Positions 8,424 to 56,630 of a DNA stretch of 64,000 bases are shown here, piece after piece. A model generated the notes under the pieces. It was not told where the DNA came from and searched no databases. It saw only the letters and a list, made by a program, of their open reading frames with translations. Source of the stretch: Fibrobacter sp. (lineage in GTDB: Bacteria > Fibrobacterota > Chitinivibrionia > Chitinivibrionales > Chitinispirillaceae). The stretch lies in contig JAAYYB010000308.1 of assembly GCA_012515615.1 (NCBI GenBank), forward strand, positions 7,761 to 71,760, read 5' to 3'. Each line of letters starts with the position of its first letter. The first letter of the stretch is position 1. A program made the position numbers and the translations under genes.

Positions 8424-8502
8424 ATTCACCTCAGAGGTAACTTTGGGACTCTCCACAGATCCATTAAACGTGTTAAATCACTCTTTCACCCCAGAGGTAA
8501 CT
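8424..8502. repeat. Two REP-like units
   Basis: ATTCACCTCAGAGGTAAC (8424) and TTAAATCACTCTTTCACCCCAGAGGTAAC (8473-8502) belong to the same family as the units around the RayT gene. Confidence 0.7.
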
Positions 8503-8527
8503 AAAGAGAAAAAAGTAGTCCGTCCCC

Positions 8528-33752: not shown

Positions 33753-34016
33753 ATGGCACATAAAAAAGGTGTAGGAAGCAGCCGTAACGGACGTGACAGC
33801 AATCCCAAGATGCTTGGAGTGAAAAGGTTCGGGGGCGAAGAGGTAAGTGCAGGAAGCATTATTGTTCGCCAGCGCGGAACTGTTGTCTATCCAGGTGTTA
33901 ACGTGGGACAGGGAAAAGATCATACTTTGTTTGCCAAAGTTGATGGTAAAGTGAAGTTTTCCTGGTTTGCAGGGAATAAAAAACGGGTTGATATAGAACC
34001 GGTTCCGCAAGCGTAA
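33753..34016 (+). CDS. rpmA: 50S ribosomal protein L27
   Basis: 87 aa with the [24 protein letters not shown] signature. Confidence 0.95.
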
Positions 34017-34088: not shown

Positions 34089-34108
34089 GACAGATATAAG
34101 TTTCCAGG

Positions 34109-34373
34109 CAGTTTAAGATATTGAATTTTGCCTTAAAATTGCAAATTGACCTTTATTTATGCGGGTTCCAGCCAAATTGAAGAGGTAAATCCAGTTTAAG
34201 ATTTTTTTGCCGAAAATGCCGCTATTTTGCCAGTTTTCCACTTAGTTTGAGAAATTAATTACTATTAATTAATTAGCAGGCGTAAGTCATAGTATTAAAA
34301 TGAGTTATGTAGGGTGCAGATTTCAGCAATTTCAGCGGAGGGTTGGCAAAGGGTTCGCAAAAGGGTTGGCAAA
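34109..34373. repeat. Direct repeats in the non-coding prophage end region (candidate transposase-binding sites)
   Basis: CAGTTTAAGAT occurs twice (34109, 34192). There are several TTTTGCC motifs, ATTTCAGC twice, and a triple GGGTT(G/C)GCAAA (34340-34373). Confidence 0.45.
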
Positions 34374-34569
34374 CTATTGTTGATTTGTCAATACTATATA
34401 ACTTATTGAAATACAGATACTTAGAAGTATATCGCAAAGAAACAACATAGAAAGCACGTTAATAAAGGTCAGCAAACAAAATTAGACAAATAAGAGACGA
34501 AAACTATAGAATTTGAATGGCCTTTAAAGAGCATGTAATAGAACATAAAAAGCATATTAAACAGCTCTC

Positions 34570-36639: not shown

Positions 36640-37419
36640 TTAAATGGTTACTCTTGCCAGGACGGTTTTCATTTCGTCGGCGCCATCCAGATCGCCGCGG
36701 GCTTCGCAGTACTTCAGCAGGCCCTTTGTATAGCTTGAATATGCGTGATCCAGTATTTTTGTGACCCTGAAGAGCTTGCGCCACAGCGGTACAGCCATGT
36801 GAAAGAGTTTTCCGCAGTGACGGAAGCCAAGCCAGGAGGGAGGCAGTGTTGTTACTATATCGTAGCCGTTTACAACGCGGCTGTGATTGACTGGTAAAAG
36901 GTCCACCTCATCCCGGTATTTTTTTGTTCCCTGGGCAGGGGCACCGAAAGAAACACAGGAGACCGGCAGTTTGCGGTTTTTAGCCAGGTGACGGGCACAG
37001 AGTGTGGCAAGGGCACCGCCCCTGGAATGCCCGGTTATGAATACAGGTACCGGGCACCTGCTGAAATCGCCGTTAAGCCGGAAACTACCCCGGAAGTATC
37101 TGTCAATTTCTGTCTTGAAGCTTTCAAATGCGTCCCAGAAGCCGTCGTGGATATATCCCCGGGCGTTCTGGTTCTCGCATTCAAGCGGCCAGGGATCGAA
37201 GTTTCTCAGCCATGCCTCAAAGCCGTCGGTACCTCTGAAAGCGATGACTACACGGTTCCCGCCTTCGCAGATATAGCCGAAATCGGTATTGTTCCGCATG
37301 AGGGTAATCATGGGGATGACGGGTTGTTCCATGGAGAGGAGGACCCGCCGGATAAGGTACTCATCATTGTCGTGGGAGCAAAGCTCCGCATATCTCCAGA
37401 GGTCAGTAATGACATTCAT
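36640..37419 (-). CDS. Class-3 lipase / alpha-beta hydrolase (phage lysis-associated esterase candidate)
   Basis: 259 aa with the nucleophile elbow ITGHSRGGALA, downstream Asp (NGYDIV) and His (LDHAYSSY) candidates. Its start overlaps the amidase stop (ATGA). Confidence 0.7.
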   Translation of the reverse strand: MNVITDLWRYAELCSHDNDEYLIRRVLLSMEQPVIPMITLMRNNTDFGYICEGGNRVVIAFRGTDGFEAWLRNFDPWPLECENQNARGYIHDGFWDAFESFKTEIDRYFRGSFRLNGDFSRCPVPVFITGHSRGGALATLCARHLAKNRKLPVSCVSFGAPAQGTKKYRDEVDLLPVNHSRVVNGYDIVTTLPPSWLGFRHCGKLFHMAVPLWRKLFRVTKILDHAYSSYTKGLLKYCEARGDLDGADEMKTVLARVTI

Positions 37420-38225: not shown

Positions 38226-38249
38226 AGAGACGCCCGGCCGGGCGTCTCT
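38226..38249. repeat. GC palindrome family, copy 1 (perfect, intergenic)
   Basis: AGAGACGCCCGGCCGGGCGTCTCT. The minus strand is preceded by CGTAG. It lies between the stop at 38263 and the SD of the 38203 gene. Confidence 0.9.
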
Positions 38250-38262
38250 ACGTTAAAACAAT

Positions 38263-38478
38263 CTAACCGACATACCGGTGCAGTTTTTTGTCCCACACCC
38301 TGCCCCTGCAGGCTTTCCCCTCGCGGGAGAAACCACTGTCAAGCTCAACCGGCACCGGTGCCCATGTACCGCAGATATTGCACAGGTCCCCGCGCCTGTA
38401 ACAAGAACCGCATTGGGGACACGGGTGACCCGATGTCTGCCGGATGGAAATTGAATTATCACTGTTTGATGGTTCCAT
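38263..38478 (-). CDS. Small zinc-ribbon protein (Com-like in size and Cys pattern)
   Basis: 71 aa with CPQCG...CNICG. It fills the gap between Mor and the next gene. Confidence 0.4.
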   Translation of the reverse strand: MEPSNSDNSISIRQTSGHPCPQCGSCYRRGDLCNICGTWAPVPVELDSGFSREGKACRGRVWDKKLHRYVG

Positions 38479-38779
38479 TTTTCTTGTGCTGAGCTATGAT
38501 TTCTAAAACTCGACGCTGAGATAAACCACACTGACGAACTATTCGCTTGACTGTAGAAAACTTCCCATCGTAATTAGCGATTATAAACTTTGAGACTGAT
38601 ATAGACTTTTTATATTTAGGCACAATCAGAGTTGTCCCTTCAAAATTCTTCATCAAATCAACAGCGGTTTTAACGCCCAATATCTCCGCGACCATCCGCA
38701 TGTCGCTGTTCGGCATGTCGTCAATCTTCATCTCATTCCAATCAGGTGCAGACGGCAGTTTAGTTTTCGAAGCATTCAT
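38459..38779 (-). CDS. mor: Mor-family middle/late transcription activator
   Basis: MVAEILGVKTAVDLMKNFEGTTLIVPKYKK...IIANYDGKFSTVKRIVRQCGLSQRRVLEII parallels Mu Mor (..HLGGGQVYIPRG...WNDFNGRNVSELTTRYGVTFNTVYKAI). The ATG at 38779 has a GGGAG SD. Confidence 0.75.
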   Translation of the reverse strand: MNASKTKLPSAPDWNEMKIDDMPNSDMRMVAEILGVKTAVDLMKNFEGTTLIVPKYKKSISVSKFIIANYDGKFSTVKRIVRQCGLSQRRVLEIIAQHKKNGTIKQ

Positions 38780-38795
38780 AGAGAAACTCCCGAGA

Positions 38796-39119
38796 TTAAT
38801 TGTGAACAATTGCGGCGCCGCTTGTAAGCAGAAACCGCCTCTTATCATCTATACTTTCAACCACGCATACCGGCATATCGGACCAGATCGTGGAATCAAA
38901 GAAAAGAATTTTTACCCTGATTACTTTACCGGCACTTCTGACAGAGATTTCCTCCCCGGGCAGACCGTATTCCAGCTTCCCCAGTTCAATCAACAGGAAC
39001 TGGCTGTCAAGTACCAGCTGGTGATGCGTGTTCAGGTGATACTGCGCCAGCCTGGCTGTCGATTTTATAAGATCCAGGAGCCAGGCCTTTTTTTCGGAAG
39101 GGGAGGTCAGTGAGTGCAC
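38796..39119 (-). CDS. Hypothetical early protein
   Basis: 107 aa with a GTG start preceded by an AGGAGG SD, which is itself preceded by the ATGGAC/GTCCAT repeat array. Confidence 0.45.
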   Translation of the reverse strand: MHSLTSPSEKKAWLLDLIKSTARLAQYHLNTHHQLVLDSQFLLIELGKLEYGLPGEEISVRSAGKVIRVKILFFDSTIWSDMPVCVVESIDDKRRFLLTSGAAIVHN

Positions 39120-39442
39120 GGGGCCTCCTGAGGGGGGACATGGACTGAATGGACGGAATGGACGGAATGGACGCCGGAGACATCAGAGACAATGGCGGTT
39201 ATGGTTTTTTGACCCTGCGCGGATCTGTGTTTGTCGATTACAGCTATGATGCTGTCCCATTCCGACTGCAGAAAGTGGCCCTTAAGAGAATCATAAGAAG
39301 ACAGACCGACGCGCCTGTCTATCGGGTTGGAACTTGTCATGAGATAGACAAGAAGAGCCAGGTCCATATACCTGTAGTGGTTCCAGTGCCAGGCCTGCTT
39401 TGCGGGGTATCCGCCGATTGTGAGATTCATATTATTATTCAT
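39107..39442 (-). CDS. Hypothetical early protein (C-terminus runs through the 9-bp repeats)
   Basis: 111 aa. The SVHSVHSVHSVH tail is the translation of the repeat array. Confidence 0.4.
   Translation of the reverse strand: MNNNMNLTIGGYPAKQAWHWNHYRYMDLALLVYLMTSSNPIDRRVGLSSYDSLKGHFLQSEWDSIIAVIDKHRSAQGQKTITAIVSDVSGVHSVHSVHSVHVPPQEAPCTH
39139..39174 (+). repeat. ATGGACNNN tandem array (4 units, 9-bp period)
   Basis: ATGGACTGA ATGGACGGA ATGGACGGA ATGGACGCC. Confidence 0.9.
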
Positions 39443-39451
39443 TTAAAGTGC

Positions 39452-40069
39452 CTATAAATACTTTGTAAAGTCTGTTTCAATGGTCAGATCCGGCATGATG
39501 AAGGTCTCGTTCATGCAGGCTCCGACACGGTTGATTTTCAGAGAGAACCGTTCGCTCATTGCTTTAATATCCCTGTCTATTTGGGCAACAAGACTACCAG
39601 GGAGAGTTTTCCCGCCTCCCCGATGGTCCTCATTTATGGTAAGTCCGGAAAAACCTTTGCTGTAGAGCCGGTCGATCAAGGCGGGCTGCAGTCTGTGTGC
39701 CATTACTCCACCGTAAACCTTCGTTTTACAATGTAATGCGGATGGTATTTCATACAGGCTGTCGTGAATGGATAAAACGATAGATGAAAACTGCCCTGCA
39801 GCCGGAGAGTCGAGAATACCGGAGTTAGAGGTGGCTAAATGTACCTGGTCGAAAATTGCCCGGGCGGCGCCTGTTATCATAAAGAAGAGCGGGTGCAATG
39901 TAGGCTCGCCGCCGGTGAGCATAACCGCACTGTGCCCGTCAATCCGCATGCTCCTGAGAACCGAGAGAATTCTAACCAGACTGTCAGATTCTCTGAAATC
40001 TCTGAGTTTACTGGTGATGCAGTACGGACAGTCGTTGTAGCATTTTGCTGTCAATATGTATTTCAGCAC
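39452..40069 (-). CDS. Small radical-SAM enzyme
   Basis: 205 aa with the CX3CX2C cluster KCYNDCPYC at residues 10-17 and the SAM-binding-type motif MLTGGEPTLHP. It is embedded in the Mu-type early operon next to Gam. Confidence 0.75.
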   Translation of the reverse strand: MLKYILTAKCYNDCPYCITSKLRDFRESDSLVRILSVLRSMRIDGHSAVMLTGGEPTLHPLFFMITGAARAIFDQVHLATSNSGILDSPAAGQFSSIVLSIHDSLYEIPSALHCKTKVYGGVMAHRLQPALIDRLYSKGFSGLTINEDHRGGGKTLPGSLVAQIDRDIKAMSERFSLKINRVGACMNETFIMPDLTIETDFTKYL

Positions 40070-40596
40070 TTTTCCTCCCCGACCGTTTCCGCCTCTTCAG
40101 CCTTGAGGAGAGCCTTCACCAGTTTGTCAACAGAACTGTCGGTTGCCTTTATAACAACCTGATCGCCGGTTTCAGATACAGAGACGCCCAGCCATTTGAG
40201 TTCCTGAACAGAGAGGTTTTCAAGAGCGCCCTTGACCGGTTTCTCGGTGGTTTTGACAAGAGTATCGAACTGGTCCGGAAAGTGTTTGCGGATGAGTTTC
40301 ACCACCTGGGCGTCATCATCCCACTCGATAGCCCCTTTACCTTTCTGGAAACCGACCTTTATACCATGAAAGACAACCGTTCTGGGTTTTACAAACAGAT
40401 CGGCCGAGTCCTCAACTGCAGAGTGAAGGAAGCTCCGTTTCTGGGAGACCGCGGCCACCGCTTTTTTGATGCCTGGAAGGAGCCTTCTTTTAGCCGCCTC
40501 TATTTCATCGTTGAGGTTCTGAACTCTCTCGACCAGAACATTTCTGGCATCGGAGAAATCTTTTGTCAATGCTTCAATTTCGGAAAGTGTGAACAT
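40063..40596 (-). CDS. gam: Gam-like host-nuclease inhibitor protein
   Basis: 177 aa with an N-terminal coiled coil, then KPRTVVFHGIKVGFQKGKGAIEW...VVKLIRKHF, matching the Mu Gam layout. Confidence 0.6.
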   Translation of the reverse strand: MFTLSEIEALTKDFSDARNVLVERVQNLNDEIEAAKRRLLPGIKKAVAAVSQKRSFLHSAVEDSADLFVKPRTVVFHGIKVGFQKGKGAIEWDDDAQVVKLIRKHFPDQFDTLVKTTEKPVKGALENLSVQELKWLGVSVSETGDQVVIKATDSSVDKLVKALLKAEEAETVGEEKC

Positions 40597-41096
40597 CAGG
40601 AATTCTCCTTATGTAATTGTGAACGTTTCATGCTCTCAATAGCTGTCTTGATTTTGCGGACATGCAGGGGTTCCAGCCATTCAGGTTTTGACACTCCTGT
40701 TATCCTGGTGATGAATTTCTCATAGGCATAATGCCTGGAGCGCGGATCGGGAGCGAATGACACATCCGCCCACATCGCTTCAAGCATCCGGAGCTGAGCG
40801 GGAGAGGCCATCCCGGGGCGTTTGCCGAGATCGTCATATTTTTTGGGCCGGCAGGAAGAGAGAGGCGCCCGGCCAGGCGCCTCTACGGATCTGTGCACGC
40901 CGGCGGCGGTGGCCATTTCGGAAAGGCGGCGGATCAGCTCGTTTGCCTTCTGGAAGGTCAGCTTTTTGGATGATGGACGGACATTGACAGGGAAGGTCCC
41001 GAAGGACGCAATCATTGCCCTGTAGTCATCATCGGGGATCCTCAGGAGATGAGCCAGTGTATGTATGCGTTTAACCTGTGAGGGTTGTGCATTCAT
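40596..41096 (-). CDS. gemA: GemA/gp16-like protein (DUF1018)
   Basis: It has two repeats of the I/L-H-x-L...DD-YR / QLRMLEAMW type, joined by a linker that carries a GC palindrome copy. Confidence 0.65.
   Translation of the reverse strand: MNAQPSQVKRIHTLAHLLRIPDDDYRAMIASFGTFPVNVRPSSKKLTFQKANELIRRLSEMATAAGVHRSVEAPGRAPLSSCRPKKYDDLGKRPGMASPAQLRMLEAMWADVSFAPDPRSRHYAYEKFITRITGVSKPEWLEPLHVRKIKTAIESMKRSQLHKENS
40861..40884. repeat. GC palindrome family, copy 2 (in the GemA-like CDS)
   Basis: AGAGGCGCCCGGCCAGGCGCCTCT followed by ACGGA. Translated as SVEAPGRAPLSS. Confidence 0.85.
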
Positions 41097-41246: not shown

Positions 41247-42134
41247 TCAGATAATGAGTGATTTTGACGATTCCAGGACTATATCGGGAGTGATTGCACA
41301 GTTATTGATTTCCGCGACACGCTGCGACCTGCGGATCAGTTTTGACAGGACGCGAGTATTACTGTTTGACGCTTCGTGGAAGGTCCTATGGATTCCGTTA
41401 CTCCCGGGAAGAAGCGATGAAACGATCTGTTCCGTATCGACAGATGTCAGCGGCTGCAGGTTCGCGGCGATACCGATACGGGAGTAGATCTGCGCGAACT
41501 CGCCTTTTTTACCACGCAGGTTCGATATGAGCCGTCTCATACCGCAGAACAGGATACCGACACCGGCCTTATCGTGAACGCGTCTTATCAACTCAAGGGC
41601 CCGCAGGGGAAGGTTTTCCGCTTCATCTATTATGATGAGACGGCCGGAATTCTCCATCCTTTTTACGATATCGGTAAACAGGTCGTGAAGCCGCCCGCGG
41701 CCATCACCGATCCCCGATCTCTGATGGAGTTCCGAGAACAGATCCTTGGCGGTATACCCGGCATCGGCCTCGATGAGAATCGTATCACTGTTACGCCTGG
41801 CGTATTCCTTGACAGCCTCGGTTTTTCCGAGTCCGGCATCACCGTAAGCGGCACCCATCTCTCCGTCAAGGTGACAGATCCGCGCAGTCTCGAAGACTTT
41901 TCTGGCTACAGATGTCATTATGAATTTCACCTTAAGCCTCGGAGCCTGTTTCCGTTCCTGCCACCGTTCCAGCAGCTGCTTAACGGACGCATCCATTTTT
42001 GCTTTATCGCCTCTGAATGTGTCGCTCAGATATTGACTGATATAGCCCGGAGAAATCCCCAGAGCTCTTGACACTGCGCTCTGCGGTGTTCCTGTTGAAT
42101 CGAGGTACTGTCTTAACTCATTTCTTACACTCAT
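41247..42134 (-). CDS. MuB-like AAA+ transposition ATPase
   Basis: 295 aa with an N-terminal HTH (QSAVSRALGISPGYISQY), Walker A GDAGLGKT and Walker B LIIIDEAENL. It lies immediately downstream of the transposase. Confidence 0.8.
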   Translation of the reverse strand: MSVRNELRQYLDSTGTPQSAVSRALGISPGYISQYLSDTFRGDKAKMDASVKQLLERWQERKQAPRLKVKFIMTSVARKVFETARICHLDGEMGAAYGDAGLGKTEAVKEYARRNSDTILIEADAGYTAKDLFSELHQRSGIGDGRGRLHDLFTDIVKRMENSGRLIIIDEAENLPLRALELIRRVHDKAGVGILFCGMRRLISNLRGKKGEFAQIYSRIGIAANLQPLTSVDTEQIVSSLLPGSNGIHRTFHEASNSNTRVLSKLIRRSQRVAEINNCAITPDIVLESSKSLII

Positions 42135-42159: not shown

Positions 42160-44166
42160 TTAACCCATTACGTCTTCTTTAGACGGTATATCTGACTCGA
42201 AAAGGTAAATTTCAGCCTTGCGGCGTTCCGGCGGCTGAAAAGATGACAGATCAGCGGTGTGTTCAGCCTGCATTTCACGATCTTTCTTTATTGCCTGGTC
42301 GATAAGAGTGTTCTGCACATGCAGAATTTTTGGTGAGGGGTCGATGTCCACCGCGAAGGCATCGGTACCGGTTTTCAGGTGAAAGAGCCGCTCCTGTGGT
42401 GTGGGCGCCTGTGAGACACTGGCGTAAGCCCGGGTGATTTTTCTGTCGCGGTTTTTGGCAGCCAGAGCGTCACGCAATTCTGATTTTTCGATTTCTGTTT
42501 CTGCTAACGCTGGAGCTACAAATTCGGCGATCCGCGCCTTTCCCAGGAGCTCATCTGTTCTGGCGTCATGAACCCAGGCCCGGGCATAGTCCTGCAGATC
42601 CCTGCGCAGATAAACTTTGACACCTTTCACTCCGGACATCCATTCAGCCCAGTATGTAACCTGCAGTTCGCTGTCTCTTATGCCGTTGCGGCCGATTGTT
42701 ACGATCCCGGATGTTCTCATGCAGAACAGACGCAGGCTGTCTTTGTCAACAAACCGTTTTTCCTTGAACTCTTCAGCCCAGGCTTCATCCGGAGAGCGCC
42801 CCTGGAGGTTTTTCCCCTTTGACACCATCCTGTTCCGTATTGTACGGATATAGCTATCAAAGAGAACGTCGAATTCATTGAAGGTGAGGATCTTTCCACT
42901 TTTGATCTCATCAGCCAGTATCTCCGGCCGCTCGGTCACATCACCGCCGCGATAACCAACCATGTGCTTCGAGAACAATTCTTTATTTTTCAGAAAATCC
43001 CGCTCGATCGGTTTGGTCTGGGCGTTATACGGCTGGGCAAAACGCGGAGAAACACCGATAACATGCAGCATGCCATTGGCCTTGACCTCATCGACTGTGA
43101 CTTTGACACGTCGAACGCGGCCACCGGCGAAATCGCGGCAGCGGTAGTCTTTTCCGTTGTCAAGAAGCACTTTCTGCGGTAAGCCGTGCTCCAGCGCAGC
43201 TAAATAAAAGGAGTAGAAAATGTGATCACTGTTTGGAGCCTCTGCATGCACATACCATCCGAGCCATTTCCCTGTTTTAAAGTCTCGCCAGGCAGTTACC
43301 CAGGGAAAACACGCTTTTCCATCAGGGAGCATCACGGCAACATCGATCTGAGCATGGTCTGAAACCCATACAGCGCCCGCAGCTACATGCGCGTAGTCAC
43401 GGTCTACATAGGGTGCATATTTACGGTTGTGGGATGCGGCGCCGTAGCGAGCGTAGTGCTGAGCCTGTTCCGGGACTTCGTTATCGATCCACCGCAGGAA
43501 CGCTTTCACGCCAGGGAAATTGTCTTTTGTAATTGACGGATCAAGAGAGCGGGCATAGCCGAGTGTATAATACCAGCAGCTCTGAGCGGAGGGCGCTCCC
43601 TCTTTGAGGTAAACGGCCTTGTAGTACTCGCCCCATTCTTTTTTGACAGAACTGACGCCCTTGTTTTTACCATACTGAGCCAGGAGGCCGGAGATGCCGT
43701 GTTTTTTGTAGGTTTTACGGGCACCGGTGAGACAGGGGTAGGATGTCTGCAGGTCCGGAGTGTTTTCGTGCTCTTTATTCCATTGTATAAGGAAGTTGCG
43801 GAGCGCGCTTCCTTTGAGACCCTCTGTAGCCCTGAAGAGTGTCAGGTATTTATCGGCGCGCTTGCGTGCCCATTCGGGCGCGCGGGCATAAAGCTCGGCT
43901 TCAACCTCGGTTTCATCACAGTTTAAAAGCTCGTTATCCTGGCTTTGAAACTTGCTTGAAAAGTATTTCGCCCGGGTTTCCGGCGGGAGCGAAGAGAGGT
44001 TTATCTGGTACTGCTCTCCACCGGCTCCCTTTACAAGACGGGCATCATAGCGGCCGCTCTTGCAGTGATAGCAGACAGTACGGGACGGCAAACCGGTAAG
44101 ACCGGCAACCTCCCTGACTGTCAGCCAGGTGTCGTTTTGTGTGGAAAGGGAATTGTTGAGAAACAT
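42160..44166 (-). CDS. MuA-like DDE transposase
   Basis: 668 aa with an N-terminal HTH (WLTVREVAGLTGLPSRTV) and an rve-type core carrying Asp in VWVSDHAQIDV and LLDNGKDYR and Glu in KPIERDF. Confidence 0.85.
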   Translation of the reverse strand: MFLNNSLSTQNDTWLTVREVAGLTGLPSRTVCYHCKSGRYDARLVKGAGGEQYQINLSSLPPETRAKYFSSKFQSQDNELLNCDETEVEAELYARAPEWARKRADKYLTLFRATEGLKGSALRNFLIQWNKEHENTPDLQTSYPCLTGARKTYKKHGISGLLAQYGKNKGVSSVKKEWGEYYKAVYLKEGAPSAQSCWYYTLGYARSLDPSITKDNFPGVKAFLRWIDNEVPEQAQHYARYGAASHNRKYAPYVDRDYAHVAAGAVWVSDHAQIDVAVMLPDGKACFPWVTAWRDFKTGKWLGWYVHAEAPNSDHIFYSFYLAALEHGLPQKVLLDNGKDYRCRDFAGGRVRRVKVTVDEVKANGMLHVIGVSPRFAQPYNAQTKPIERDFLKNKELFSKHMVGYRGGDVTERPEILADEIKSGKILTFNEFDVLFDSYIRTIRNRMVSKGKNLQGRSPDEAWAEEFKEKRFVDKDSLRLFCMRTSGIVTIGRNGIRDSELQVTYWAEWMSGVKGVKVYLRRDLQDYARAWVHDARTDELLGKARIAEFVAPALAETEIEKSELRDALAAKNRDRKITRAYASVSQAPTPQERLFHLKTGTDAFAVDIDPSPKILHVQNTLIDQAIKKDREMQAEHTADLSSFQPPERRKAEIYLFESDIPSKEDVMG

Positions 44167-44196
44167 GAGCGCTCCGTGAAAAGAAAATTCTGTTTA

Positions 44197-44222
44197 ATGG
44201 ACAGAAATGGACTGACATGGAC
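44197..44222 (+). repeat. ATGGAC tandem array (3 units, 10-bp period) upstream of the transposase gene
   Basis: ATGGACAGAA ATGGACTGAC ATGGAC, 30-55 nt upstream of the MuA start. Confidence 0.85.
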
Positions 44223-45461: not shown

Positions 45462-45881
45462 ATGTTACTTGAAGAACTTTCATTCGAAAAAGTTTTTAAA
45501 AGGCTGAAAGACGTGCTAAGTATTATCAGGGATTCTGATATGGCACGTGCTATAGGGACTCAGCCTAATAAATTTGGTATGTGGAAATCACGTAATTTTT
45601 TACCACTGGAATTAATTAACGAGGTTTGTAAGAATAATAGAATTTCCATCAATTATGTTCTTTATGGACAGGGGCCGCAAAAAATACCAGACTCAGATAG
45701 TTCACCACTTTCACTTGAGGAGAAAGTGGAATTATTCACAGTGCAGAAAAAATTACTGCAATTATTCGTCGAGAAAAGTGAACAATTGAGGGCTGCGCTG
45801 CCACCAATATCTGACAAACTACAAGCTGAAATGAATTTATTAAAACGTGCTGCAGAATTGCTTGAAAAGAATTTATCTTAA
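45462..45881 (+). CDS. CI-type phage repressor (Phage_CI_repr-like N-terminal domain)
   Basis: 139 aa. FKRLKDVL...MARAIGTQPNKFGMWKSRNFLPLELINEVCKNNRISINYVLYGQG matches the CI-repressor HTH pattern. It is divergent from the ner-A-B genes. Confidence 0.75.
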   Translation: MLLEELSFEKVFKRLKDVLSIIRDSDMARAIGTQPNKFGMWKSRNFLPLELINEVCKNNRISINYVLYGQGPQKIPDSDSSPLSLEEKVELFTVQKKLLQLFVEKSEQLRAALPPISDKLQAEMNLLKRAAELLEKNLS

Positions 45882-47351: not shown

Positions 47352-47975
47352 CTATCTAAAATTGTCGCCCTGAGATAGAATCAGGTACCTTTTTACCGAG
47401 TCGTTAATTTCCTCTTTAGCATCAACGGTGAGCACCATGAAGGGCCTGGGAGGGAGGCTGATTTCGTGTGCTTTTGCCGTGTAGTCGCGCTCGACAACAC
47501 GTTTGTGATGAGCCTTTGCAAAGACAGATAAATTGAGCAGCCGTCCGCTCTCACCCTGCCGCAGGAGCACGCCGTAGCGGTCGGTGCGCAGCCTGGCAAC
47601 GCCTTTACGGGCAGGAATCTTTATCGGGTTATTTCCGGTACCGAAGTTCTGCGCGGCCGCATAAGCTTTGTTTGTGGTTACCTTCGCGCTCTCCTTATCG
47701 TAGTCGGAAGCCAGGGACGCGGCCAGTTCGCCTCTTTGCTGGAGGATCTTGCCGGGCCAGTAACCTTTGCGTTCCCGTTCCTTGATCGTTCGTTTCTTCA
47801 GTTTCGGCCAGGGATCGGGACGTCCCTCCTGTTCGAAATTCTCCTCAACGCAGTCGAGCATGATCCCGGAGATCCGCCGCATGACAGGGGTCATGTCCTC
47901 GACGCGGGAAACGAGCTCCCGGAGACCATCCATGATTTCCTGGTCGTTCTGGGTAATGAAAATTGGATCGCTCAT
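47352..47975 (-). CDS. Virion morphogenesis protein (Mu gpG family)
   Basis: 207 aa. MRRISGIMLDCVEENFEQEGRPDPWPKLKKRTIKERERKG...ILQQRGELAASL fits the gpG/Phage_tail_S pattern. Confidence 0.8.
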   Translation of the reverse strand: MSDPIFITQNDQEIMDGLRELVSRVEDMTPVMRRISGIMLDCVEENFEQEGRPDPWPKLKKRTIKERERKGYWPGKILQQRGELAASLASDYDKESAKVTTNKAYAAAQNFGTGNNPIKIPARKGVARLRTDRYGVLLRQGESGRLLNLSVFAKAHHKRVVERDYTAKAHEISLPPRPFMVLTVDAKEEINDSVKRYLILSQGDNFR

Positions 47976-47993
47976 TGCAGCTCCAGGGAGAGT

Positions 47994-48026
47994 ATGGACG
48001 GAATGGACTGTATGGACGGAATGGAC
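47994..48026 (+). repeat. ATGGACNNN tandem array (4 units, 9 bp)
   Basis: ATGGACGGA ATGGACTGT ATGGACGGA ATGGAC. It lies between the G start and the -35 of the 48042 promoter. Confidence 0.9.
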
Positions 48027-48041
48027 AACAGATGAGAATAT

Positions 48042-48070
48042 TTGACAAACTGCTTAAAATTTCGTATTAT
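48042..48070 (+). promoter_or_regulatory. Near-consensus sigma-70-type promoter
   Basis: TTGACA (48042-48047), an exactly 17-nt spacer, then TATTAT (48065-48070). GGAAAGGAG SD and the ATG at 48091 follow. Confidence 0.6.
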
Positions 48071-48090
48071 ATGGGAAAGGAGTGAAAGGT

Positions 48091-48288
48091 ATGACAGATA
48101 CGACAGAGAAACTGGAACAGGCTGTGCAGGAGTACATGAAACAGCATCCCAACGCTGACAGCCCGCTGTGCCTTCTTGCGGATCTTGGAGACGAAGGTCT
48201 CTTGAAAGTTTTGAAAAAGGCCAACGGCCGGGAGATAGTGTTTGAAGACACTGACGGCCTCGATGAAATAAAGTGGAAGTTTCTTTAA
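48091..48288 (+). CDS. Small acidic protein, oriented against the flanking MuF and G genes
   Basis: 65 aa (MTDTTEKLEQAVQEYMKQHP...), rich in D/E, with its own promoter and SD. The track start is the GTG at 48082. Its stop overlaps the MuF stop region. Confidence 0.55.
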   Translation: MTDTTEKLEQAVQEYMKQHPNADSPLCLLADLGDEGLLKVLKKANGREIVFEDTDGLDEIKWKFL

Positions 48289-49778
48289 TCACCGAAAACC
48301 TCCTTCCCGTAAGTTCGCATCGCCTTTGCCGTTTGAGGAAGCATCTTCTCCAGGAACGGATTCCCTCTGAAATACAGTTCCAGCGTGTGTGAATGAAATT
48401 CATGCCTGGGATTGTCTGCGCTTTTGCGCCAGTAACTTTTCGTGTGGCCATCACCGTATTTCCCGCTGCTCAGACTGCACACAGTATCACTGAATGACAG
48501 ATACATCTTGTGGGCATCAGTTTCAGGGGCTTTGAGATTGAGAGAATCGAGCATCTCTCTGCGGTGCTGGAAGTAATTCCCGGGCAGCAGCTTTTCCCTG
48601 ACGCTCTTGTCGAGCGCACCGAGCTCCGAAACGGCTGTATCCCAGACCTTGTTGAATTTCGAGAGCAGCTCCGGTGTTTTCAGGACATTCTTTTCAAAGA
48701 ACGCATGAGCGTATTCGTGAATGGTTGTCCACTCCTTCACGAATCCGGACCTGGTTGACCTGAATCCCAGGTGAACAGTATCTGATGCCGGGCGGTAGAA
48801 AGATCTGGAATCCCTGCCCTTTACAAAAGGAACCTTGCGTTCCATCCTGTCCCAGAATGAATCCGGCAGAACATCTTTACCCACTTCCTTTTCGAGGTTA
48901 TCCGGAATAAAGACACTTTTAAGCGGAGCCTTTTTCCCCAGGTCTTTTTTTACTGCCGCGGCAATATCGCTGTCGTATTTCGACCAGTCGGGCTGCCATT
49001 TGGCTTTCCCCGGGTTATAGTTCCATCCGGGGTCCGGAGCAATTTTTTTACCGGTGGCCGGATCGGTGTAGACTGTAACCTCTTCCATAAGGCCGGTAGT
49101 CTTTGACACCAGGCGATCCTCTTTTGAGAGGGTGCCGCCTGAAGAGACGCCCGGCCGGGGGTCTGTACTTGACAGAGTAAGAGAGCGGTCCTGAAGGTTT
49201 CTGCTGTTAAGAGAACGGACACGGCACCGGCAGTTGAATGCCAGGGGCGGATAGAAAGAATCCCAGAAAGGATCGTTTATGGGAAACACCTTTCCGTTAA
49301 GCGCAGCGTGCTGGGGGCGTGTCCGGGAGTCGAGCACGGCCACATACTGAAGGTACGGGCGGTCGGAGGCGTTATCAACCTGATCTTTCCACCGTCCGGC
49401 CATATACGCTGACTGCATGTTTGTGCGGTAGATGGTTTTAAGCCTTGACACAGAGCCGAGCTGCACCGCGGTTGCCTGCCCGGATTGATCCCCGAGCCAC
49501 TGCTTCCCCCACCATCCCATTGCTTTCAGGCGCGGTTCCAGTTCTTTACGGAACTGCTCGAATGTGAGTCCCTCATTGAGTGCCTTGTCAACAGCCCTGC
49601 GGATCTCAGTAAGGATATCGGCTCTCGCCGCTTTAGCGACCGTAAACGCATGCGCGTGGGCCTCCTGCCAGGTATCGTACCAGTTCCAGGAGATTGCATA
49701 CCCCTTGGAGCGGAAATAATCCACAGCCTGGTGAGGAGGGAGACCGATAGCGAATGAGAGATCGACAGGTGATGACAT
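48285..49778 (-). CDS. MuF/SPP1-gp7-family head morphogenesis protein with a C-terminal HExxH extension
   Basis: 497 aa. The MuF core has YRTNMQSAYMAGRW...RTRPQHAALNGKVF...FNCRCRV. The roughly 190-aa extension contains TIHEYAHAFF. Confidence 0.85.
   Translation of the reverse strand: MSSPVDLSFAIGLPPHQAVDYFRSKGYAISWNWYDTWQEAHAHAFTVAKAARADILTEIRRAVDKALNEGLTFEQFRKELEPRLKAMGWWGKQWLGDQSGQATAVQLGSVSRLKTIYRTNMQSAYMAGRWKDQVDNASDRPYLQYVAVLDSRTRPQHAALNGKVFPINDPFWDSFYPPLAFNCRCRVRSLNSRNLQDRSLTLSSTDPRPGVSSGGTLSKEDRLVSKTTGLMEEVTVYTDPATGKKIAPDPGWNYNPGKAKWQPDWSKYDSDIAAAVKKDLGKKAPLKSVFIPDNLEKEVGKDVLPDSFWDRMERKVPFVKGRDSRSFYRPASDTVHLGFRSTRSGFVKEWTTIHEYAHAFFEKNVLKTPELLSKFNKVWDTAVSELGALDKSVREKLLPGNYFQHRREMLDSLNLKAPETDAHKMYLSFSDTVCSLSSGKYGDGHTKSYWRKSADNPRHEFHSHTLELYFRGNPFLEKMLPQTAKAMRTYGKEVFGD
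49143..49168. repeat. GC palindrome family, copy 3 (decayed, in the MuF CDS)
   Basis: AGAGACGCCCGGCCGGGGGTCTGTAC. It is read in a different frame (TDPRPGVSS) and sits at the core/extension junction. Confidence 0.7.
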
Positions 49779-49785
49779 TTTTCCG

Positions 49786-51294
49786 TTACTGCTTTCCGTT
49801 CAGGCGTCCCCAGATTTCACTGACAAATTTTGCCCTTGCGAGCATGGTCACCATCTGCTCGTCATCCATGTCGGGATACTGTGACACGAGATGCCGTTTG
49901 ACATCGTCGACTGATTTTCCTTTCGCAAAGAGAGAAATGACGGGTTTAAGGAGGCCCTCGGCCTGGTTCTGCAGGTCGGGGTCGGGGATGTCGGAGATTG
50001 CCTGATCGAGGAGATCCTGATCGGGGAATCGGCCGGAACCGGATGATAGAGACGCCCGGCCGGGCGTCTCTACGGAATGGGCGGGGGCGGCGAATTGGGA
50101 ATCGGGCGCCGGCGGATTGGATGTATCAATATCGCCGTCTTCGAAATTATAGGCGCGTTTGTAATATTCAGGTGTAAATTTGAGGCCGGTATCTGACAAG
50201 ATTTTGTCACGCTCGGCAAGGTCCTTATCGACGTCTTCTTCTTCCCACATTGACCAGACGGGACGGGCGCCCTGGAAGTTGAGGTCCCAGATCCAGGTGA
50301 TAAGCTGATTTACAGTGTTTTCAACGATTCTTTTATCGGCGTTTACGATGTCTTTACGCACCTGTATTGCGGCATCCTCACCGCCCAGTTTTCCGGCGGT
50401 GCTTGTCACCGCACCTTCATGGCCGAGCTGGACAATAGAGACCTCTTCCTTGCAGAACCGCAGGAGCCGCTCGTAAATATCTGCACTTGCGCCTTTTCCT
50501 TCTGATTCCAGAAGTTCAACTGAGGAATCGTTGGGTATGACCGCGATGGCATCCTGGATCATCTTTTCGAGACCATCGAGCAGCAGATCCTGTTCATCAT
50601 CGGAGGCAGAACGCGGGGTCTTCCCAACCGCAAAGGGCATCCCGTATTTCTCTGAAAATGTCACCCAGAATTTCAGTCCGCCTTTCTTAAATGTAGTGGG
50701 CCAGAAACAGGCGCTGAGGTCCGGAAAACCGTAAGGGTTCCTGTAGGTTGCCTCCTGGCGCGGGTTGAGAAATTTCTTATCCGGGAGTTCCTCTCCGGTC
50801 AAGCTTCCAGGCACGCGGAGACGGAGCGTATTCTCCTGGTCGTAGCAGAACCATTCCTGGGGTTTGCCGGTGATACGTGCGGGCAGAATCATGTTCCCCA
50901 CACGTTCCCAGATTATTTCGAGCACGGCGTACCCGAACTGTCCGGCATCGAGGATTTCCCCGATCAGAGTATGCAGGTCAAGATTGTCAAACAGGGAAAC
51001 GAGTTCCTTTGTCTGACGGCTGCGGGATTTTCCGCGGTCGATACCGGACTCAAGCTGCAGTACTCCTGATTTGCGATTGCGGATACATCCGCGCAGATGC
51101 GGATCAGTCTGCAGTTCCCGGTAGACATCGATGTCTTTCCCCATTCTTTTAAGAACAGGGTCGGGGTTAGGGAGATACATCCCGGACCAGAGAAAATCCA
51201 TCCTGCGGCGGGTGGCTATTTCGGCGGAGAGATTTTTCGTTATCGGGACGAAAGTGCTGTTATCGAGCCAGAGACCTTTTTGATTCATGGTCAA
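49786..51294 (-). CDS. Portal protein (Mu gp29 / DUF935 type)
   Basis: 502 aa. The position between terminase and MuF and the overall pattern fit DUF935 portals. Confidence 0.8.
   Translation of the reverse strand: MTMNQKGLWLDNSTFVPITKNLSAEIATRRRMDFLWSGMYLPNPDPVLKRMGKDIDVYRELQTDPHLRGCIRNRKSGVLQLESGIDRGKSRSRQTKELVSLFDNLDLHTLIGEILDAGQFGYAVLEIIWERVGNMILPARITGKPQEWFCYDQENTLRLRVPGSLTGEELPDKKFLNPRQEATYRNPYGFPDLSACFWPTTFKKGGLKFWVTFSEKYGMPFAVGKTPRSASDDEQDLLLDGLEKMIQDAIAVIPNDSSVELLESEGKGASADIYERLLRFCKEEVSIVQLGHEGAVTSTAGKLGGEDAAIQVRKDIVNADKRIVENTVNQLITWIWDLNFQGARPVWSMWEEEDVDKDLAERDKILSDTGLKFTPEYYKRAYNFEDGDIDTSNPPAPDSQFAAPAHSVETPGRASLSSGSGRFPDQDLLDQAISDIPDPDLQNQAEGLLKPVISLFAKGKSVDDVKRHLVSQYPDMDDEQMVTMLARAKFVSEIWGRLNGKQ
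50048..50076. repeat. GC palindrome family, copy 4 (perfect, in the portal CDS)
   Basis: AGAGACGCCCGGCCGGGCGTCTCT followed by ACGGA. Translated as SVETPGRASLSS. Confidence 0.9.
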
Positions 51295-52871
51295 TATCCT
51301 TTAATAATGGAAACACGGTTCTTGCGCGGGCGGCTTTTTACCCGCACCGGTCCGGCGTTTGATTTTGCTGCCATCTCTGCCAGGCAGTAGGCCCACCAGT
51401 GATCGGCGTGCCCTGTCGCATCGGTGGCATCGGCATCGTAGCGGTTATTCCCCCCCACAACCATTTTTCGTATTGAATGGAAAGAGTCCCTGATTGTCTG
51501 GTCCGGAGGAATACGGGAGCGGCGGTCTTCGAGCGCGTTTTTGCCATCAACGGCCAGTTCCTCTTTTGTCGCAGAGGTGAAATTCACACCCTCTGTCATG
51601 TACTCCCCGTACTTCTCCTGAGCCTGTTCGACAAGTGGTATTCCCATTCCTGTCCGGTCAATGCACACCCGTCTCATCCGTTTCAGTTTCATAACTCTGT
51701 CAAGGTACTCCATCTGAATTTTGAACCGAGTATTTGAGAATGCTTTGACATGGCGTGTGTAACGTACATCACCAAGTTTCTGCACAATCCAGAGAACAGA
51801 AAAGTGCCTCGTTCTGGCGATATCCCATCCGGCGTACAGGTCACCTTCCTGGAGCATGTTGAGCTGCTCCAGAGTCATGAGAAGATTTTCCGATTCGGCA
51901 AGGTAGATCATTTCGTAGGGGACAAACGCAGTCGCGGCATCGACGGCAATACAGCAGTACTCCTCATTCCAGACATCCTCGCTGCGGCAGTCCTCGTATT
52001 CCCTGAGAAGCCATTCGACCCGTTCATCTTCGGAGAGTGCTTTCCCGCAGATCTTGTCCGCGACGCCATCAATGACGGCATCGAAGATCGTAACGGTATG
52101 CAGAGACCAGCTTACCTTCCCAGCTTTTGCATCCTGGACAAACCGGTAGTACAGGCACTGCTGGCCGTGATGAGTTGAAAGGATACGAATCGGGTAGCCC
52201 CACATGGCTGAAGGCTTAGCGGCTTTCCACATCCCAGCCTGGTCATCATGCCACGCGAATTCATCGAGGACCACTTTCCCGCCCTTGGAGCGGAAGCGTT
52301 TGGGGTTGCTTGTCAGAGCATAGATTTTGCCACCGTTTGAGAACTCAATTCCCAGGGCGGTAATTTTCTTGTCGGAATCCAGGACAACTTCACCGAGAGC
52401 CTTTGCCCCGATGTTAAACATCTTTGCCCACTGGCCGCAGTAGTCTATATATTCTTTTGCCGCGGATTCATCAGCGGATGTAAAGTACACTTTCCGCACG
52501 GGTCTTCCGGGCGTGTATTCCTTCTTAAGAACTATATCGCGTACATCTTCGAAGGACTGAACATAGGTCGCACCGATACGGCGGGATTTTTCCCAGACCT
52601 TGATTCGGGAGTCATCGGCGAGCCATCGGAGCTGGTAGCCGAGAAAGTATTTGTCTGCTTTTTGGGAGGCGTGAGACGCCCGGCCGGATGAGAGAGACGC
52701 CCGGCCGGATGAGAGAGGCGCCCGGCCGGGCGCCTCTACGGAATTGCGGATCCCGGAAATGCGTTTTGCGGAGGCGCGCAGCGCAAGGCGGAATTCCTGG
52801 CGCCTGTCGGAAGCCGGAGACGTCCCGTCGGGTGTCTGTACGGTTGAGAGTTCAGTCGCTGTCGCTGTCAT
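51291..52871 (-). CDS. Terminase large subunit (Mu gp28-like)
   Basis: 526 aa, upstream of the portal with an overlapping stop/start. It has an N-terminal ATPase region (KSRRIGATYV) and a C-terminal nuclease-like region. Confidence 0.75.
   Translation of the reverse strand: MTATATELSTVQTPDGTSPASDRRQEFRLALRASAKRISGIRNSVEAPGRAPLSSGRASLSSGRASHASQKADKYFLGYQLRWLADDSRIKVWEKSRRIGATYVQSFEDVRDIVLKKEYTPGRPVRKVYFTSADESAAKEYIDYCGQWAKMFNIGAKALGEVVLDSDKKITALGIEFSNGGKIYALTSNPKRFRSKGGKVVLDEFAWHDDQAGMWKAAKPSAMWGYPIRILSTHHGQQCLYYRFVQDAKAGKVSWSLHTVTIFDAVIDGVADKICGKALSEDERVEWLLREYEDCRSEDVWNEEYCCIAVDAATAFVPYEMIYLAESENLLMTLEQLNMLQEGDLYAGWDIARTRHFSVLWIVQKLGDVRYTRHVKAFSNTRFKIQMEYLDRVMKLKRMRRVCIDRTGMGIPLVEQAQEKYGEYMTEGVNFTSATKEELAVDGKNALEDRRSRIPPDQTIRDSFHSIRKMVVGGNNRYDADATDATGHADHWWAYCLAEMAAKSNAGPVRVKSRPRKNRVSIIKGY
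52672..52742. repeat. GC palindrome family, copy 5, with a 21-bp tandem triplication of the left arm
   Basis: GAGACGCCCGGCCGG ATGAGAGAGACGCCCGGCCGG ATGAGAGAGGCGCCCGGCCGGGCGCCTCT ACGGA. Translated as SVEAPGRAPLSSGRASLSSGRAS. Confidence 0.9.
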
Positions 52872-53302
52872 CCGGGAATACCCAGTACGTCACGCTGTAT
52901 GAGTTTAACAATATCTTCGGGAACTGTCCCGGAAGATCCTGCCGGCTTTTCCGCGTTTTTAACCGCGTCCTCGTAATCTTTTACTTTTGCGATATTGGGA
53001 AGCAGTTTTCCCAGGGTGAAATATCTTCCCGGGCTGACAGGTTTTCCTGCGAGCTCATCCTCTTTTATTGACCTCATGAGCCATCGGGTGAACTCATAGA
53101 GTTCCTCATGAAAAGCGGTACGGGATGCCCGGTACTGGGAGCGCAGAGTATCCCAGTCGTTTCCCTCTTTATGAGCCTCTTCTTTCCAGTTGCGAATGGT
53201 TCTTTCTCCGCATTTGAGGCGTGAGGCGATCTCGCCTATCGTGCACTGTTCATGCGTAAAGAGTCTCTGAGCTTCCGCATAGAGGGCGTCTTTTTTAGCC
53301 AT
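52868..53302 (-). CDS. Terminase small subunit candidate (DUF1804 / Mu gp27-like)
   Basis: MAKKDALYAEAQRLF..CTIGEIASRLKCGERTIRNWKEEA has an HTH. The ATG at 53302 is preferred. Its stop overlaps the terminase large subunit start. Confidence 0.65.
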   Translation of the reverse strand: MAKKDALYAEAQRLFTHEQCTIGEIASRLKCGERTIRNWKEEAHKEGNDWDTLRSQYRASRTAFHEELYEFTRWLMRSIKEDELAGKPVSPGRYFTLGKLLPNIAKVKDYEDAVKNAEKPAGSSGTVPEDIVKLIQRDVLGIPG

Positions 53303-53555
53303 TGAGGTCTTTCTCCAGCCTGTCAATAGTCTCTTTACGTTTCCGCATTTCCACCCAGAGATTGTACAGACGGTCCATCGCTGCTTTCGCCTGGTCAACT
53401 GACAAATCGGTAATGTCGGAAATGTATGGATTGAGGAAATTTCTCACGACAGTTTCATTGGCGTGAGCTTCGAGCTGCTCCGCATTGAATTTCTGTTTCA
53501 GTTCCGCGAGCTGACCCTTGAAGACGGCAAGTTCGTGGTTGAATTCCGGAGTCAT
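53295..53555 (-). CDS. Hypothetical coiled-coil protein
   Basis: 86 aa, in series in the packaging operon. Confidence 0.4.
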   Translation of the reverse strand: MTPEFNHELAVFKGQLAELKQKFNAEQLEAHANETVVRNFLNPYISDITDLSVDQAKAAMDRLYNLWVEMRKRKETIDRLEKDLNG

Positions 53556-56590: not shown

Positions 56591-56594
56591 GGAA

Positions 56595-56618
56595 ATGGAC
56601 TGTATGGACAGAATGGAC
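56595..56618 (+). repeat. ATGGACNNN tandem array (3 units, 9 bp)
   Basis: ATGGACTGT ATGGACAGA ATGGAC, immediately 5' of the AAGGAGG SD of the 56631 gene. Confidence 0.9.
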
Positions 56619-56630
56619 AAAGGAGGTGGT

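Follow-up and report, generated by a model that had tools for sequence, protein, structure and literature searches.

Why should a Mu-type transposable phage carry, among its early genes, an enzyme of the radical S-adenosylmethionine (SAM) superfamily that is only 205 amino acids long? The question is raised by a prophage in the stretch of Fibrobacter sp. DNA analysed here (the 64,000 nucleotides at positions 7,761 to 71,760 of contig JAAYYB010000308.1, assembly GCA_012515615.1; below, the window), in which the list of open reading frames (ORFs) places a radical-SAM (rSAM) ORF of 205 codons on the minus strand at 39452..40069, with a GTG start and a TAG stop. We find that this is almost certainly the gene of a genuine rSAM enzyme that belongs to a new phage family, and that it is very probably a stand-alone, dispensable accessory cassette. 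The activity of the enzyme is less sure; the best overall explanation, in which our confidence falls somewhat short of even, is a stand-alone early enzyme that acts on a nucleotide or nucleic acid, possibly in counter-defence.

The Pfam model PF04055 (Radical_SAM) matches residues 4–83 of the protein with 37.7 bits (E = 3.1e-9; the gathering score is 29.5), and Pfam shows no domain besides this one in the ORF, in agreement with a sequence-only reading of the locus that had called it a minimal single-domain rSAM enzyme. The AlphaFold2 model (predicted local distance difference test score 90.2, predicted TM-score 0.88) contains seven strands that alternate with helices and then a short C-terminal hairpin; the modelled fold is a partial (β/α)6 barrel followed by a short C-terminal β-hairpin. 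Conservation was judged from an alignment of 63 sequences that are 25–48% identical to the window protein. The canonical Cys cluster that had been read from the letters is there: the CX3CX2C [4Fe-4S] motif in the translation is C10-Y-N-D-C14-P-Y16-C17 (40019..40042, minus strand; residues 9–17 read KCYNDCPYC), with C10 and C17 each present in 62 of the 63 sequences, C14 in all of them and Y16 in 61. The SAM-binding GGE motif, M50-L-T-G-G-E-P-T-L-H-P60 (MLTGGEPTLHP, residues 50–60; 39890..39922, minus strand), stands at the end of strand β2 and is likewise conserved in these relatives, and since both the Cys triad and this motif persist across 63 sequences at such modest identity, they are evidently under selection.

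C14, G53, G54, E55, H102, G142 and P193 are invariant in the alignment, and K3, T7, C10, Y16, C17, T52, P56, F73, T80 and S100, together with Y119, G139, E147, N180, C185 and L195 in the C-terminal half, are at least 90% conserved. C10, C14 and C17 are the predicted [4Fe-4S] ligands, the GGEP, T80/N82 and S100 motifs occupy the usual SAM-binding strand ends and, with these sites intact, the protein is predicted to bind a [4Fe-4S] cluster and to cleave SAM reductively to 5'-deoxyadenosine. Three further positions recur below: K3 in strand β1 (40061..40063, minus strand; Lys in 61 and Arg in 2 of the 63), H102 in a family-specific S100-x-H102 motif after strand β4 (39764..39766, minus strand; H102 in 63/63, S100 in 59/63), and C185 in an INRxGxC motif after the last strand (39515..39517, minus strand; 62/63), the sole conserved Cys outside the cluster. 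The C-terminal half as a whole carries conserved residues that are specific to the family (H102, Y119, E147, N180, C185 and P193), and when the C-terminal halves of ten members were compared with Pfam nothing meaningful was found even at E ≤ 10. Two members are unusual: the copy in one Mu-like prophage (locus L005, 10001-10528), which adjoins arginine-biosynthesis genes on a 188-kb contig, ends at 175 amino acids without C185 or the PDL motif and is probably decaying, and member P0082 has a Cys-rich, zinc-ribbon-like C-terminal tail, a lone and uninformative case.

How is the gene expressed? The genes for MuA (42160-44166; PHROG 310, E = 2e-91; Pfam DDE_2 and Mu-transpos_C), MuB (41247-42134; PHROG 296, E = 7e-79; Pfam AAA_22), GemA (40596-41096; PHROG 286; Pfam GemA), Gam (40063-40596; PHROG 491, E = 3e-14; Pfam Gam with 28.2 bits, the cut-off being 28.3) and a Mor-like activator (38459-38848; PHROG 836, E = 1e-9) are co-directional, as in the early operon of a Mu-type transposable phage, and the rSAM gene lies immediately downstream of Gam, where the sequence-only reading had put it. 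It is followed by a 111-codon ORF (39107-39442) and a 107-codon ORF (38796-39119), neither with a family match, and an amidase endolysin and a class-3 lipase come after the Mor-like activator. A Shine-Dalgarno sequence, GGAGG (40074..40078, minus strand), can be read 4 nt 5' of the rSAM GTG within the 3' end of Gam, and the GTG overlaps the Gam stop codon (40063-40065); because of these two features the sequence indicates that the rSAM gene would be translated from the Mu-type early operon and coupled to Gam. The homologues in the family share the N-terminus MLK(H/Y) with the window protein, and most of them end in (F/Y)L. Promoter-like and terminator-like sites between 38000 and 41300, the cassette included, are no more numerous than in shuffled sequence. 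The GC content of the gene (48.4%, compared with 49–54% in the adjoining genes) bears no mark of recent transfer.

The clearest evidence about the gene's role comes from near-identical phages that lack it. In nine sequencing runs (X17, X13, X3, X4, X5, X10, X11, X12 and X14), from anaerobic digester, sludge, manure and wastewater samples, phages 95–99% identical to that in the window join 39437 directly to 40062 (or, equivalently, 39434 to 40059), so that the gene is missing as a precise 624-nt cassette (39438..40061, minus strand) with a 4-nt microhomology (coding strand TGAA) at its ends. Several of the gene-less contigs are 9–30 kb long, and the junction is therefore not a unitig artefact. 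The form that contains the gene was found in three of the 12 runs aligned (X1, X2 and X9) and, by word index, in X23–X26 as well; in the index the gene occurs in only 7 runs, compared with more than 20 for its flanks. The gene is thus missing from most close relatives of the window phage, and the forms with and without it coexist, which bears out the idea of a variable accessory slot. In the gene-less form the same Shine-Dalgarno sequence and GTG would start the 111-codon ORF as MLNNNMNL; where the rSAM gene is present, as in the window, it takes that GTG, and the displaced 111-codon ORF uses an ATG just past the rSAM stop. No other change accompanies gain or loss of the gene. Since it alone differs between the two forms, it must work without a partner and the lytic cycle must be able to do without it, which would suit a factor for counter-defence or for fitness under certain conditions.

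Two observations were made on the genes that surround the cassette. The class-3 lipase (36640-37419; PF01764, E = 2e-26) is directly behind the amidase endolysin, and a homologue of it (8396-9181) is immediately upstream of the rSAM gene in another Mu-like locus, L003, and absent from all other loci of the family. In runs X4 and X12, 200 nt of the Mor-like gene (38529-38730) are swapped for 200 unrelated letters, which points to mosaic exchange within the activator gene.

In its genetics the cassette resembles the T3 SAM lyase, Ocr-type anti-restriction genes and anti-CRISPR cassettes: all are single early genes that need no partner, occur sporadically among close relatives, and are gained or lost as precise cassettes. 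The analogy is functional only, as folds and chemistry are unrelated. It does raise the question, put in the sequence-only reading too, of whether the enzyme could simply be a sink for SAM, which by uncoupled cleavage would starve SAM-dependent restriction or BREX (bacteriophage exclusion) systems much as the T3 lyase does. The intact SAM site and the early, stand-alone and dispensable nature of the gene are what such a sink would show; however, rSAM enzymes are slow at uncoupled cleavage and use up reductant in it, and the strongly conserved, family-specific C-terminal half (H102, Y119, E147, N180, C185 and P193) speaks for a defined substrate pocket, of which a SAM sink would have no need. 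We therefore regard a SAM sink as highly improbable.

Which rSAM enzymes are the nearest relatives of the window protein? The sequence-only reading had proposed profile searches and structure prediction, and these place the protein in the MoaA/viperin/twitch-SPASM branch. Foldseek comparison of the model with the PDB gave SkfB, viperin, PqqE, SuiB and MoaA as top matches (TM-scores 0.67–0.75, query-normalised), with 47 PDB matches at E ≤ 1e-3; 49 of the 50 entries listed are rSAM enzymes, the other being a Dehalococcoides Elp3 entry. A profile of the family matched AbmM (E = 3e-10), SkfB (1e-9), a viperin-like enzyme (3e-8) and MoaA (4e-7) in the PDB, as well as a tetraether synthase and the epimerase YydG, and the matches to AbmM, SkfB, the viperin-like enzyme, the tetraether synthase and MoaA are all confined to profile positions 3–101. 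Scores against the NCBIfam models all fall far short of the cut-offs: the best, NirJ, has 26 bits (cut-off 515), and MoaA (TIGR02666) has 22.8 (284), viperin (NF038283) 22.6 (180; E = 5e-5), TIGR02495 (NrdG/NrdG2) 22.7 (131.15; E = 5e-5, residues 7–59 only), HxsC (TIGR03977) 20.3 (267.9) and QueE (TIGR03963) 15.7 (260). Because both fold and profile matches lead to this branch, and similarity is limited to the N-terminal ~100 positions, we conclude that the family is a reduced offshoot of it which has kept the core barrel and lost the additional modules, namely the RNA- or peptide-recognition domain, the RiPP (ribosomally synthesized and post-translationally modified peptide) recognition element (RRE), the auxiliary cluster and the viperin-type C-terminal extension.

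Comparison with individual relatives illustrates this reduction. MoaA (GTP 3',8-cyclase; PDB 1tv7 and 2fb2) belongs to the same branch of the superfamily (profile E = 4e-7, TM-score 0.64–0.71), and the mini-rSAM protein has what we take to be MoaA-like strand-end motifs, TTxN after β3, SxH/D after β4 and xINE after β6; however, it has 205 residues rather than ~330 and, with C185 alone, lacks the C-terminal three-Cys auxiliary cluster. The twitch/SPASM peptide maturases provide the best Foldseek E-value (SkfB 6efn, 1.2e-7) and the best TM-score (SuiB 5v1q, 0.75), PqqE (6c8v) being the third of these compared, but the mini-rSAM protein has no RRE, no auxiliary-cluster Cys residues and no conserved precursor peptide nearby. 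Its C-terminal β-hairpin with a single Cys may be the vestige of a twitch domain.

Viperins deserve separate consideration, as they make up five of the ten best PDB fold matches. Could the phage gene be a viperin-like weapon, which converts a nucleoside triphosphate (NTP) to a chain-terminating or toxic analogue and so shuts down the host or a rival phage, or defends the lysogen? The mini-rSAM protein and viperin/pVip (RSAD2; PDB 5vsl, 6q2p and 9dfn) share the N-terminal cluster motif, the GGE motif and the core partial barrel (Foldseek E = 1.6e-7, TM-score ~0.7 query-normalised; profile E = 3e-8), both are single-cluster, stand-alone enzymes in settings of phage-host conflict, and two PADLOC pVip models (E = 4e-7 and 4e-6) and the NCBIfam prokaryotic viperin model (above) match. 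These matches are limited to the generic N-terminal ~100 residues (profile positions 3–107 of 257–262 for the PADLOC models, their N-terminal half only; 22.6 bits against 180 for NCBIfam), and no full-length profile match that includes the C-terminal extension closing over the NTP was found; the phage protein is ~60–100 residues shorter (205 residues against the 257–262 positions of the pVip profiles), lacks that extension, and its similarity to viperin stops near residue 100. Viperin is encoded in host defence islands, whereas the mini-rSAM gene is coupled to a lytic early operon, kept silent by repression in a lysogen, and promoter-like sites around it are no more than chance gives. Mu depends on host RNA polymerase. 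No transcription enzyme was seen in the visible prophage, which presumably uses the host's polymerase also, so a chain terminator would harm the phage itself. A viperin-like weapon is, in our judgment, decidedly unlikely.

How widespread is the family? A word-indexed search gave 18 relatives, and a profile search of 1.84 billion representative sequences gave 74 at E < 1e-30, nearly all 190–220 amino acids long; the remaining profile matches are fragments and large multi-domain proteins that align mainly to the first ~100 profile positions, and we estimate family size as ~75–100 clusters. Members were found in metagenomes only, and every informative genomic context is that of a phage. Hosts that could be identified are metagenome-assembled genomes of Ignavibacteriota and Bacteroidota, and the runs that contain the phage or the gene are from anaerobic digester, sludge and manure samples, habitats which fit an oxygen-labile enzyme. 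A tblastn search of INPHARED (50,697 phage records) gave no match, PHROGs has no group for the family, its matches there being partial only, and in the literature we searched the family is undescribed and no phage rSAM enzyme with an anti-defence role was found. Thus, although the superfamily is well known, this single-domain, phage-restricted family of 190–220 residues is newly described, having no description beyond the generic Pfam domain and none in NCBIfam, PHROGs, PADLOC, INPHARED or the literature searched.

Loci that encode family members were drawn from the encoding contigs, IMG/VR, GTDB genomes and JGI metagenomes, and their ORFs were clustered, initially for 18 loci and then for the 34 in which the rSAM gene was called (ORF calling was by a crude greedy longest-ORF procedure, and BLASTP thresholds were E ≤ 1e-5 for the first set and 1e-4 for the 34). 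Nine loci contain both MuA and MuB (the window, L001, L003, L005, L006, L012/L048, L023, L024 and L025), and a tenth, L056, has the GemA-side synteny of the early operon and stops short of any MuA or MuB. In all nine Mu-like loci the rSAM gene is co-directional with the early operon, and its position varies: it is ahead of the transposase in L001, L003, L005 and L012, between MuB and Gam in L023, after Gam in the window, and after GemA and Mor in L006, L024 and L025. The sequence-only reading had suggested looking for co-occurrence with the two downstream ORFs (39107-39442 and 38796-39119); none emerged, as neither has a homologue in 18 related loci (phmmer, E < 0.01) and both are singletons in the BLASTP clustering of the 34 loci.

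Other phages account for thirteen more non-redundant loci, some on contigs of 100–200 kb, and in these the rSAM gene lies amid genes for RecT, a DnaB-like helicase, thymidylate kinase, exonuclease, an HD domain and DNA methylase. No neighbour cluster is common to all loci in either round of BLASTP clustering, and no small ORF is conserved beside family members in the clustered loci. However, in 6 of the 13 non-Mu loci (L009, L010, L052, L051, L055 and L057) an ATP-dependent ligase gene lies within seven genes of the rSAM gene, adjacent to it or one ORF away in four (L009, L052, L055 and L057); these ligases form two clusters that are unrelated by BLAST and both match Pfam DNA_ligase_A_M. A gene for the RNA-repair nucleotidyltransferase RlaP directly adjoins the rSAM gene in L015 and L051, and L009 has two HAD_SAK_2 genes. 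RlaP adds nucleotides to damaged RNA 3' ends in tRNA repair (PMC12776372), and jumbo phages carry it together with RNA ligases (PMC7824862). The ligase and RlaP neighbours together constitute a guilt-by-association signal of moderate strength for nucleic-acid end transactions. One locus on a 149-kb IMG/VR contig (L014, 13071-16856) has, 3–5 kb downstream of its mini-rSAM gene, a vWA-like gene and a gene that resembles adenylosuccinate synthetase (Pfam E = 6e-45, assigned to this locus from its sequence and possibly PurZ-type); these are followed by two small ORFs and then by a second, MoaA-like rSAM gene of 320 codons and a GGDEF-like ORF.

These neighbourhoods also bear on whether the protein could be a QueE or a glycyl-radical activase that has its partner genes in the host or in that portion of the phage which lies beyond the window. 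Such enzymes are of similar size, as the sequence-only reading had noted, and weak matches exist (PHROG 2076, "QueE-like", E = 7e-5; NrdG2, E = 5e-5; PDB QueE 5tgs by profile, E = 0.005; a precomputed PF13353 match in some members); like the T4 NrdG and phage QueE (PHROG 2076), the mini-rSAM protein is phage-encoded and requires anaerobic conditions. The likeness stops at size and setting. Scores against the curated models are far under their cut-offs (15.7 against 260 bits, 22.7 against 131), neither QueE nor an activase is among the top 50 Foldseek matches in the PDB, and T4 NrdG and phage QueE belong to a different clade of the superfamily, one with an N-terminal GxGxR or QGEG strand for which a cluster motif that begins at residue 10 leaves no room. 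Their defining partner genes are also absent. No queC, queD, nrdD or pfl was found in the window, just as the sequence-only reading had said, and no folE or dpdA/tgt either; the scans took the ORFs of the early operon and four of six morphogenesis genes (47352-53398) one by one and the remaining phage ORFs as a pool, and for the host flank they gave 25 listed families of 152 matched (the prophage itself extends beyond the window end at 64000). Likewise, no queC, queD, folE, dpdA, nrdD or pfl is among the 123 Pfam-scanned neighbours in eight non-Mu loci (25 of the 32 matched families listed) or the Pfam-labelled genes of the Mu-like loci, none recurs in the clustered neighbourhoods, and a glycyl-radical enzyme gene is absent from all loci among the Pfam matches listed. 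With no confident activase match and the Cys triad kept in the homologues, the QueE/activase assignment was rejected on curated scores, fold neighbours and missing partner genes; we consider this explanation largely refuted and give it next to no credence.

If the protein is neither, what could its substrate be? Relatives of it that have no peptide-recognition domain, MoaA, viperin, AbmM and BlsE, all act on nucleotides or nucleosides. In a profile alignment K3 falls on the β1 Asn of NYFFTRKC in the viperin-like enzyme 9dfn, and we take the equivalent position to contact the nucleotide in viperin (N77) and in MoaA (R17). Because of these relatives, the K3 alignment and the ligase and RlaP neighbours, we favour a nucleotide-type substrate, in a tentative way. 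In the mechanism that we envisage, the host's Fe-S assembly machinery and flavodoxin or ferredoxin would charge and reduce the enzyme after infection or induction under anoxia, SAM would be cleaved to the 5'-deoxyadenosyl radical, and this would take a hydrogen atom from a substrate already supplied by the host cell. That substrate, perhaps of a phosphate-bearing nucleotide type, whether free or part of a nucleic acid at an end or a lesion, would be held by K3, H102, Y119, N146/E147, R150, N180/R181 and D194, with C185 as the likely hydrogen-atom donor or thiyl partner. On this view the gene would serve early nucleic-acid transactions and so contribute to counter-defence or to fitness under certain conditions. 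A more specific version, a phage rSAM counter-defence or repair enzyme that acts on a nucleotide, an immune signal, or a damaged DNA or RNA end, is a speculation that we rate as rather improbable.

Several points weigh against a nucleotide or nucleic-acid substrate. We infer it from relatives, K3 and neighbouring genes, and the protein lacks the viperin C-terminal extension and the MoaA auxiliary cluster, the parts that bind the nucleotide in those enzymes. Just ~4 conserved basic residues are available for phosphate binding, the mean isoelectric point of the family is 6.8, so that its proteins are not generally basic, and the rSAM protein has no nucleic-acid-binding domain. The best single PDB fold matches include the peptide maturases SkfB, SuiB and PqqE. 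Gam is adjacent in 2 of the 9 Mu-like phages, about chance level; the ligase link may reflect only shared early-gene status; the six ligase loci perhaps represent ~3–4 independent lineages; and the crude gene calling and clustering weaken the ligase and RlaP association. Finally, no RNA run with the rSAM gene was found, and the sole metatranscriptome that contains the phage holds the gene-less form.

The maturases among the fold matches lead to the most serious competitor, a protein- or peptide-directed enzyme that modifies a folded protein of host or phage or installs a radical on it, or that matures a small RiPP-like peptide encoded next to it. Besides SkfB, SuiB and PqqE, the profile match to YydG is of this kind, and C185 resembles the hydrogen-donor Cys of radical epimerases. 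Glycyl-radical activases have, as a rule, an uncovered lateral barrel opening, and in the mini-rSAM protein there is no lid domain and its small size leaves this opening uncovered. The 111-codon ORF next to the gene ends in an (HSV)n repeat, reminiscent of the HxS-repeat substrate with which the HxsB/C rSAM defence system acts (PMC13128918). This last lead, towards an HXS system or a RiPP, was followed and rejected: the (HSV)n tail is unique to the window and arises from a 9-bp DNA repeat, which has a second occurrence at 47994 and related arrays at 44196 and 56594, partly outside ORFs, and no other family member has a His-tripeptide repeat within 3 kb. The HXS defence system itself (HxsB/HxsC with the HxS-repeat protein HxsA) was set aside since the HxsC profile is far under its cut-off (20 bits against 268) and there is no conserved His-Xaa-Ser repeat. 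More generally, the protein has no RRE and no SPASM or twitch cysteines, no small ORF is conserved beside family members, and no glycyl-radical enzyme gene is among the Pfam matches listed for any locus. We consider a protein- or peptide-directed enzyme unlikely, and continue to prefer an early enzyme that acts on a nucleotide or nucleic acid.

The prophage that carries the gene has several other features of note. The remainder of its visible part is structural (terminase, portal, MuF, gpG, and head and tail genes), and its left flank is host DNA with housekeeping genes for MreB, PBP2, RodA, SecDF, FtsH and RNase G, and for L27 from the ORF translation (the 25 families listed of 152 matched in the host flank are all housekeeping). 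Upstream of the early operon (45376 to 34570), and co-directional with it, is the TerS-like/TerL/portal/MuF/gpG operon (53398 to 47352, minus strand); a CI-like repressor gene (45462-45881, plus strand) lies between the two, and from 54401 onwards the plus strand carries divergent head and tail genes. This gene order (34100-64000) is unusual for a Mu-like phage, and it is shared by L001 and L003. The left end of the prophage is likely within 34095-34400, just past host rpmA (33753-34016) and its terminator-like hairpin; related contigs part from the window at 34193 (X3 and X4) or begin at 34095 (X11). In this region CAGTTTAAGAT is repeated at 34109 and 34192 and AGGGTTGGCAA is present three times at 34339-34373, and these are candidate transposase-binding repeats.

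Two other repeats were seen inside the prophage. A 24-nt GC-rich palindrome, AGAGRCGCCCGGCCRGGCGYCTCT, occurs five times (none expected), all within the prophage (38226-38249, 40861-40884, 49143-49166, 50048-50071 and 52714-52737) and inside minus-strand ORFs, namely a 108-codon ORF and the genes for GemA, MuF, portal and TerL; four of the five copies share a reading frame, in which they encode VE(T/A)PGRA(S/P)L, and the TerL gene also has a 21-nt tandem array of the palindrome at 52673-52729. It looks like a small palindromic element inserted in frame, by analogy with the Rickettsia palindromic elements. The 9-bp tandem repeat that yields the (HSV)n tail (above), ATGGACGGA, is present in ~3.7 copies near gene junctions at 39140-39173 and 47994-48026, with related arrays at 44196-44222 and 56594-56619, and runs differ in how many copies they have (X3 and X4 are 9 nt longer here). 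Its significance may lie in the binding of a protein to the array and not in the peptide that it encodes.

To our knowledge, radical-SAM enzymes perform chemistry that is beyond any other enzyme class. Host-side members are already part of the phage-host conflict, as viperins and HxsB/C maturases; in the literature searched there is no characterised stand-alone rSAM enzyme on the phage side with a role in takeover or counter-defence. Uncharacterised rSAM families are common, which tempers the interest of a new one. Even if its function proves mundane, however, few complete rSAM cores in the MoaA/viperin/twitch branch are as small as that of this family, a useful minimal scaffold for enzymology, and the family is tractable, as a single gene of ~200 codons in phages of anaerobic habitats, with a natural presence/absence polymorphism in the window phage that offers ready-made isogenic comparisons. 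If the enzyme does act in counter-defence or repair, it would be the first radical-SAM enzyme of phages with such a role, tied to the end-healing genes for ligase and RlaP beside which it is found in non-Mu phages, and it would mean that phages of anaerobes can use this chemistry to escape nuclease- or nucleotide-based host defence.

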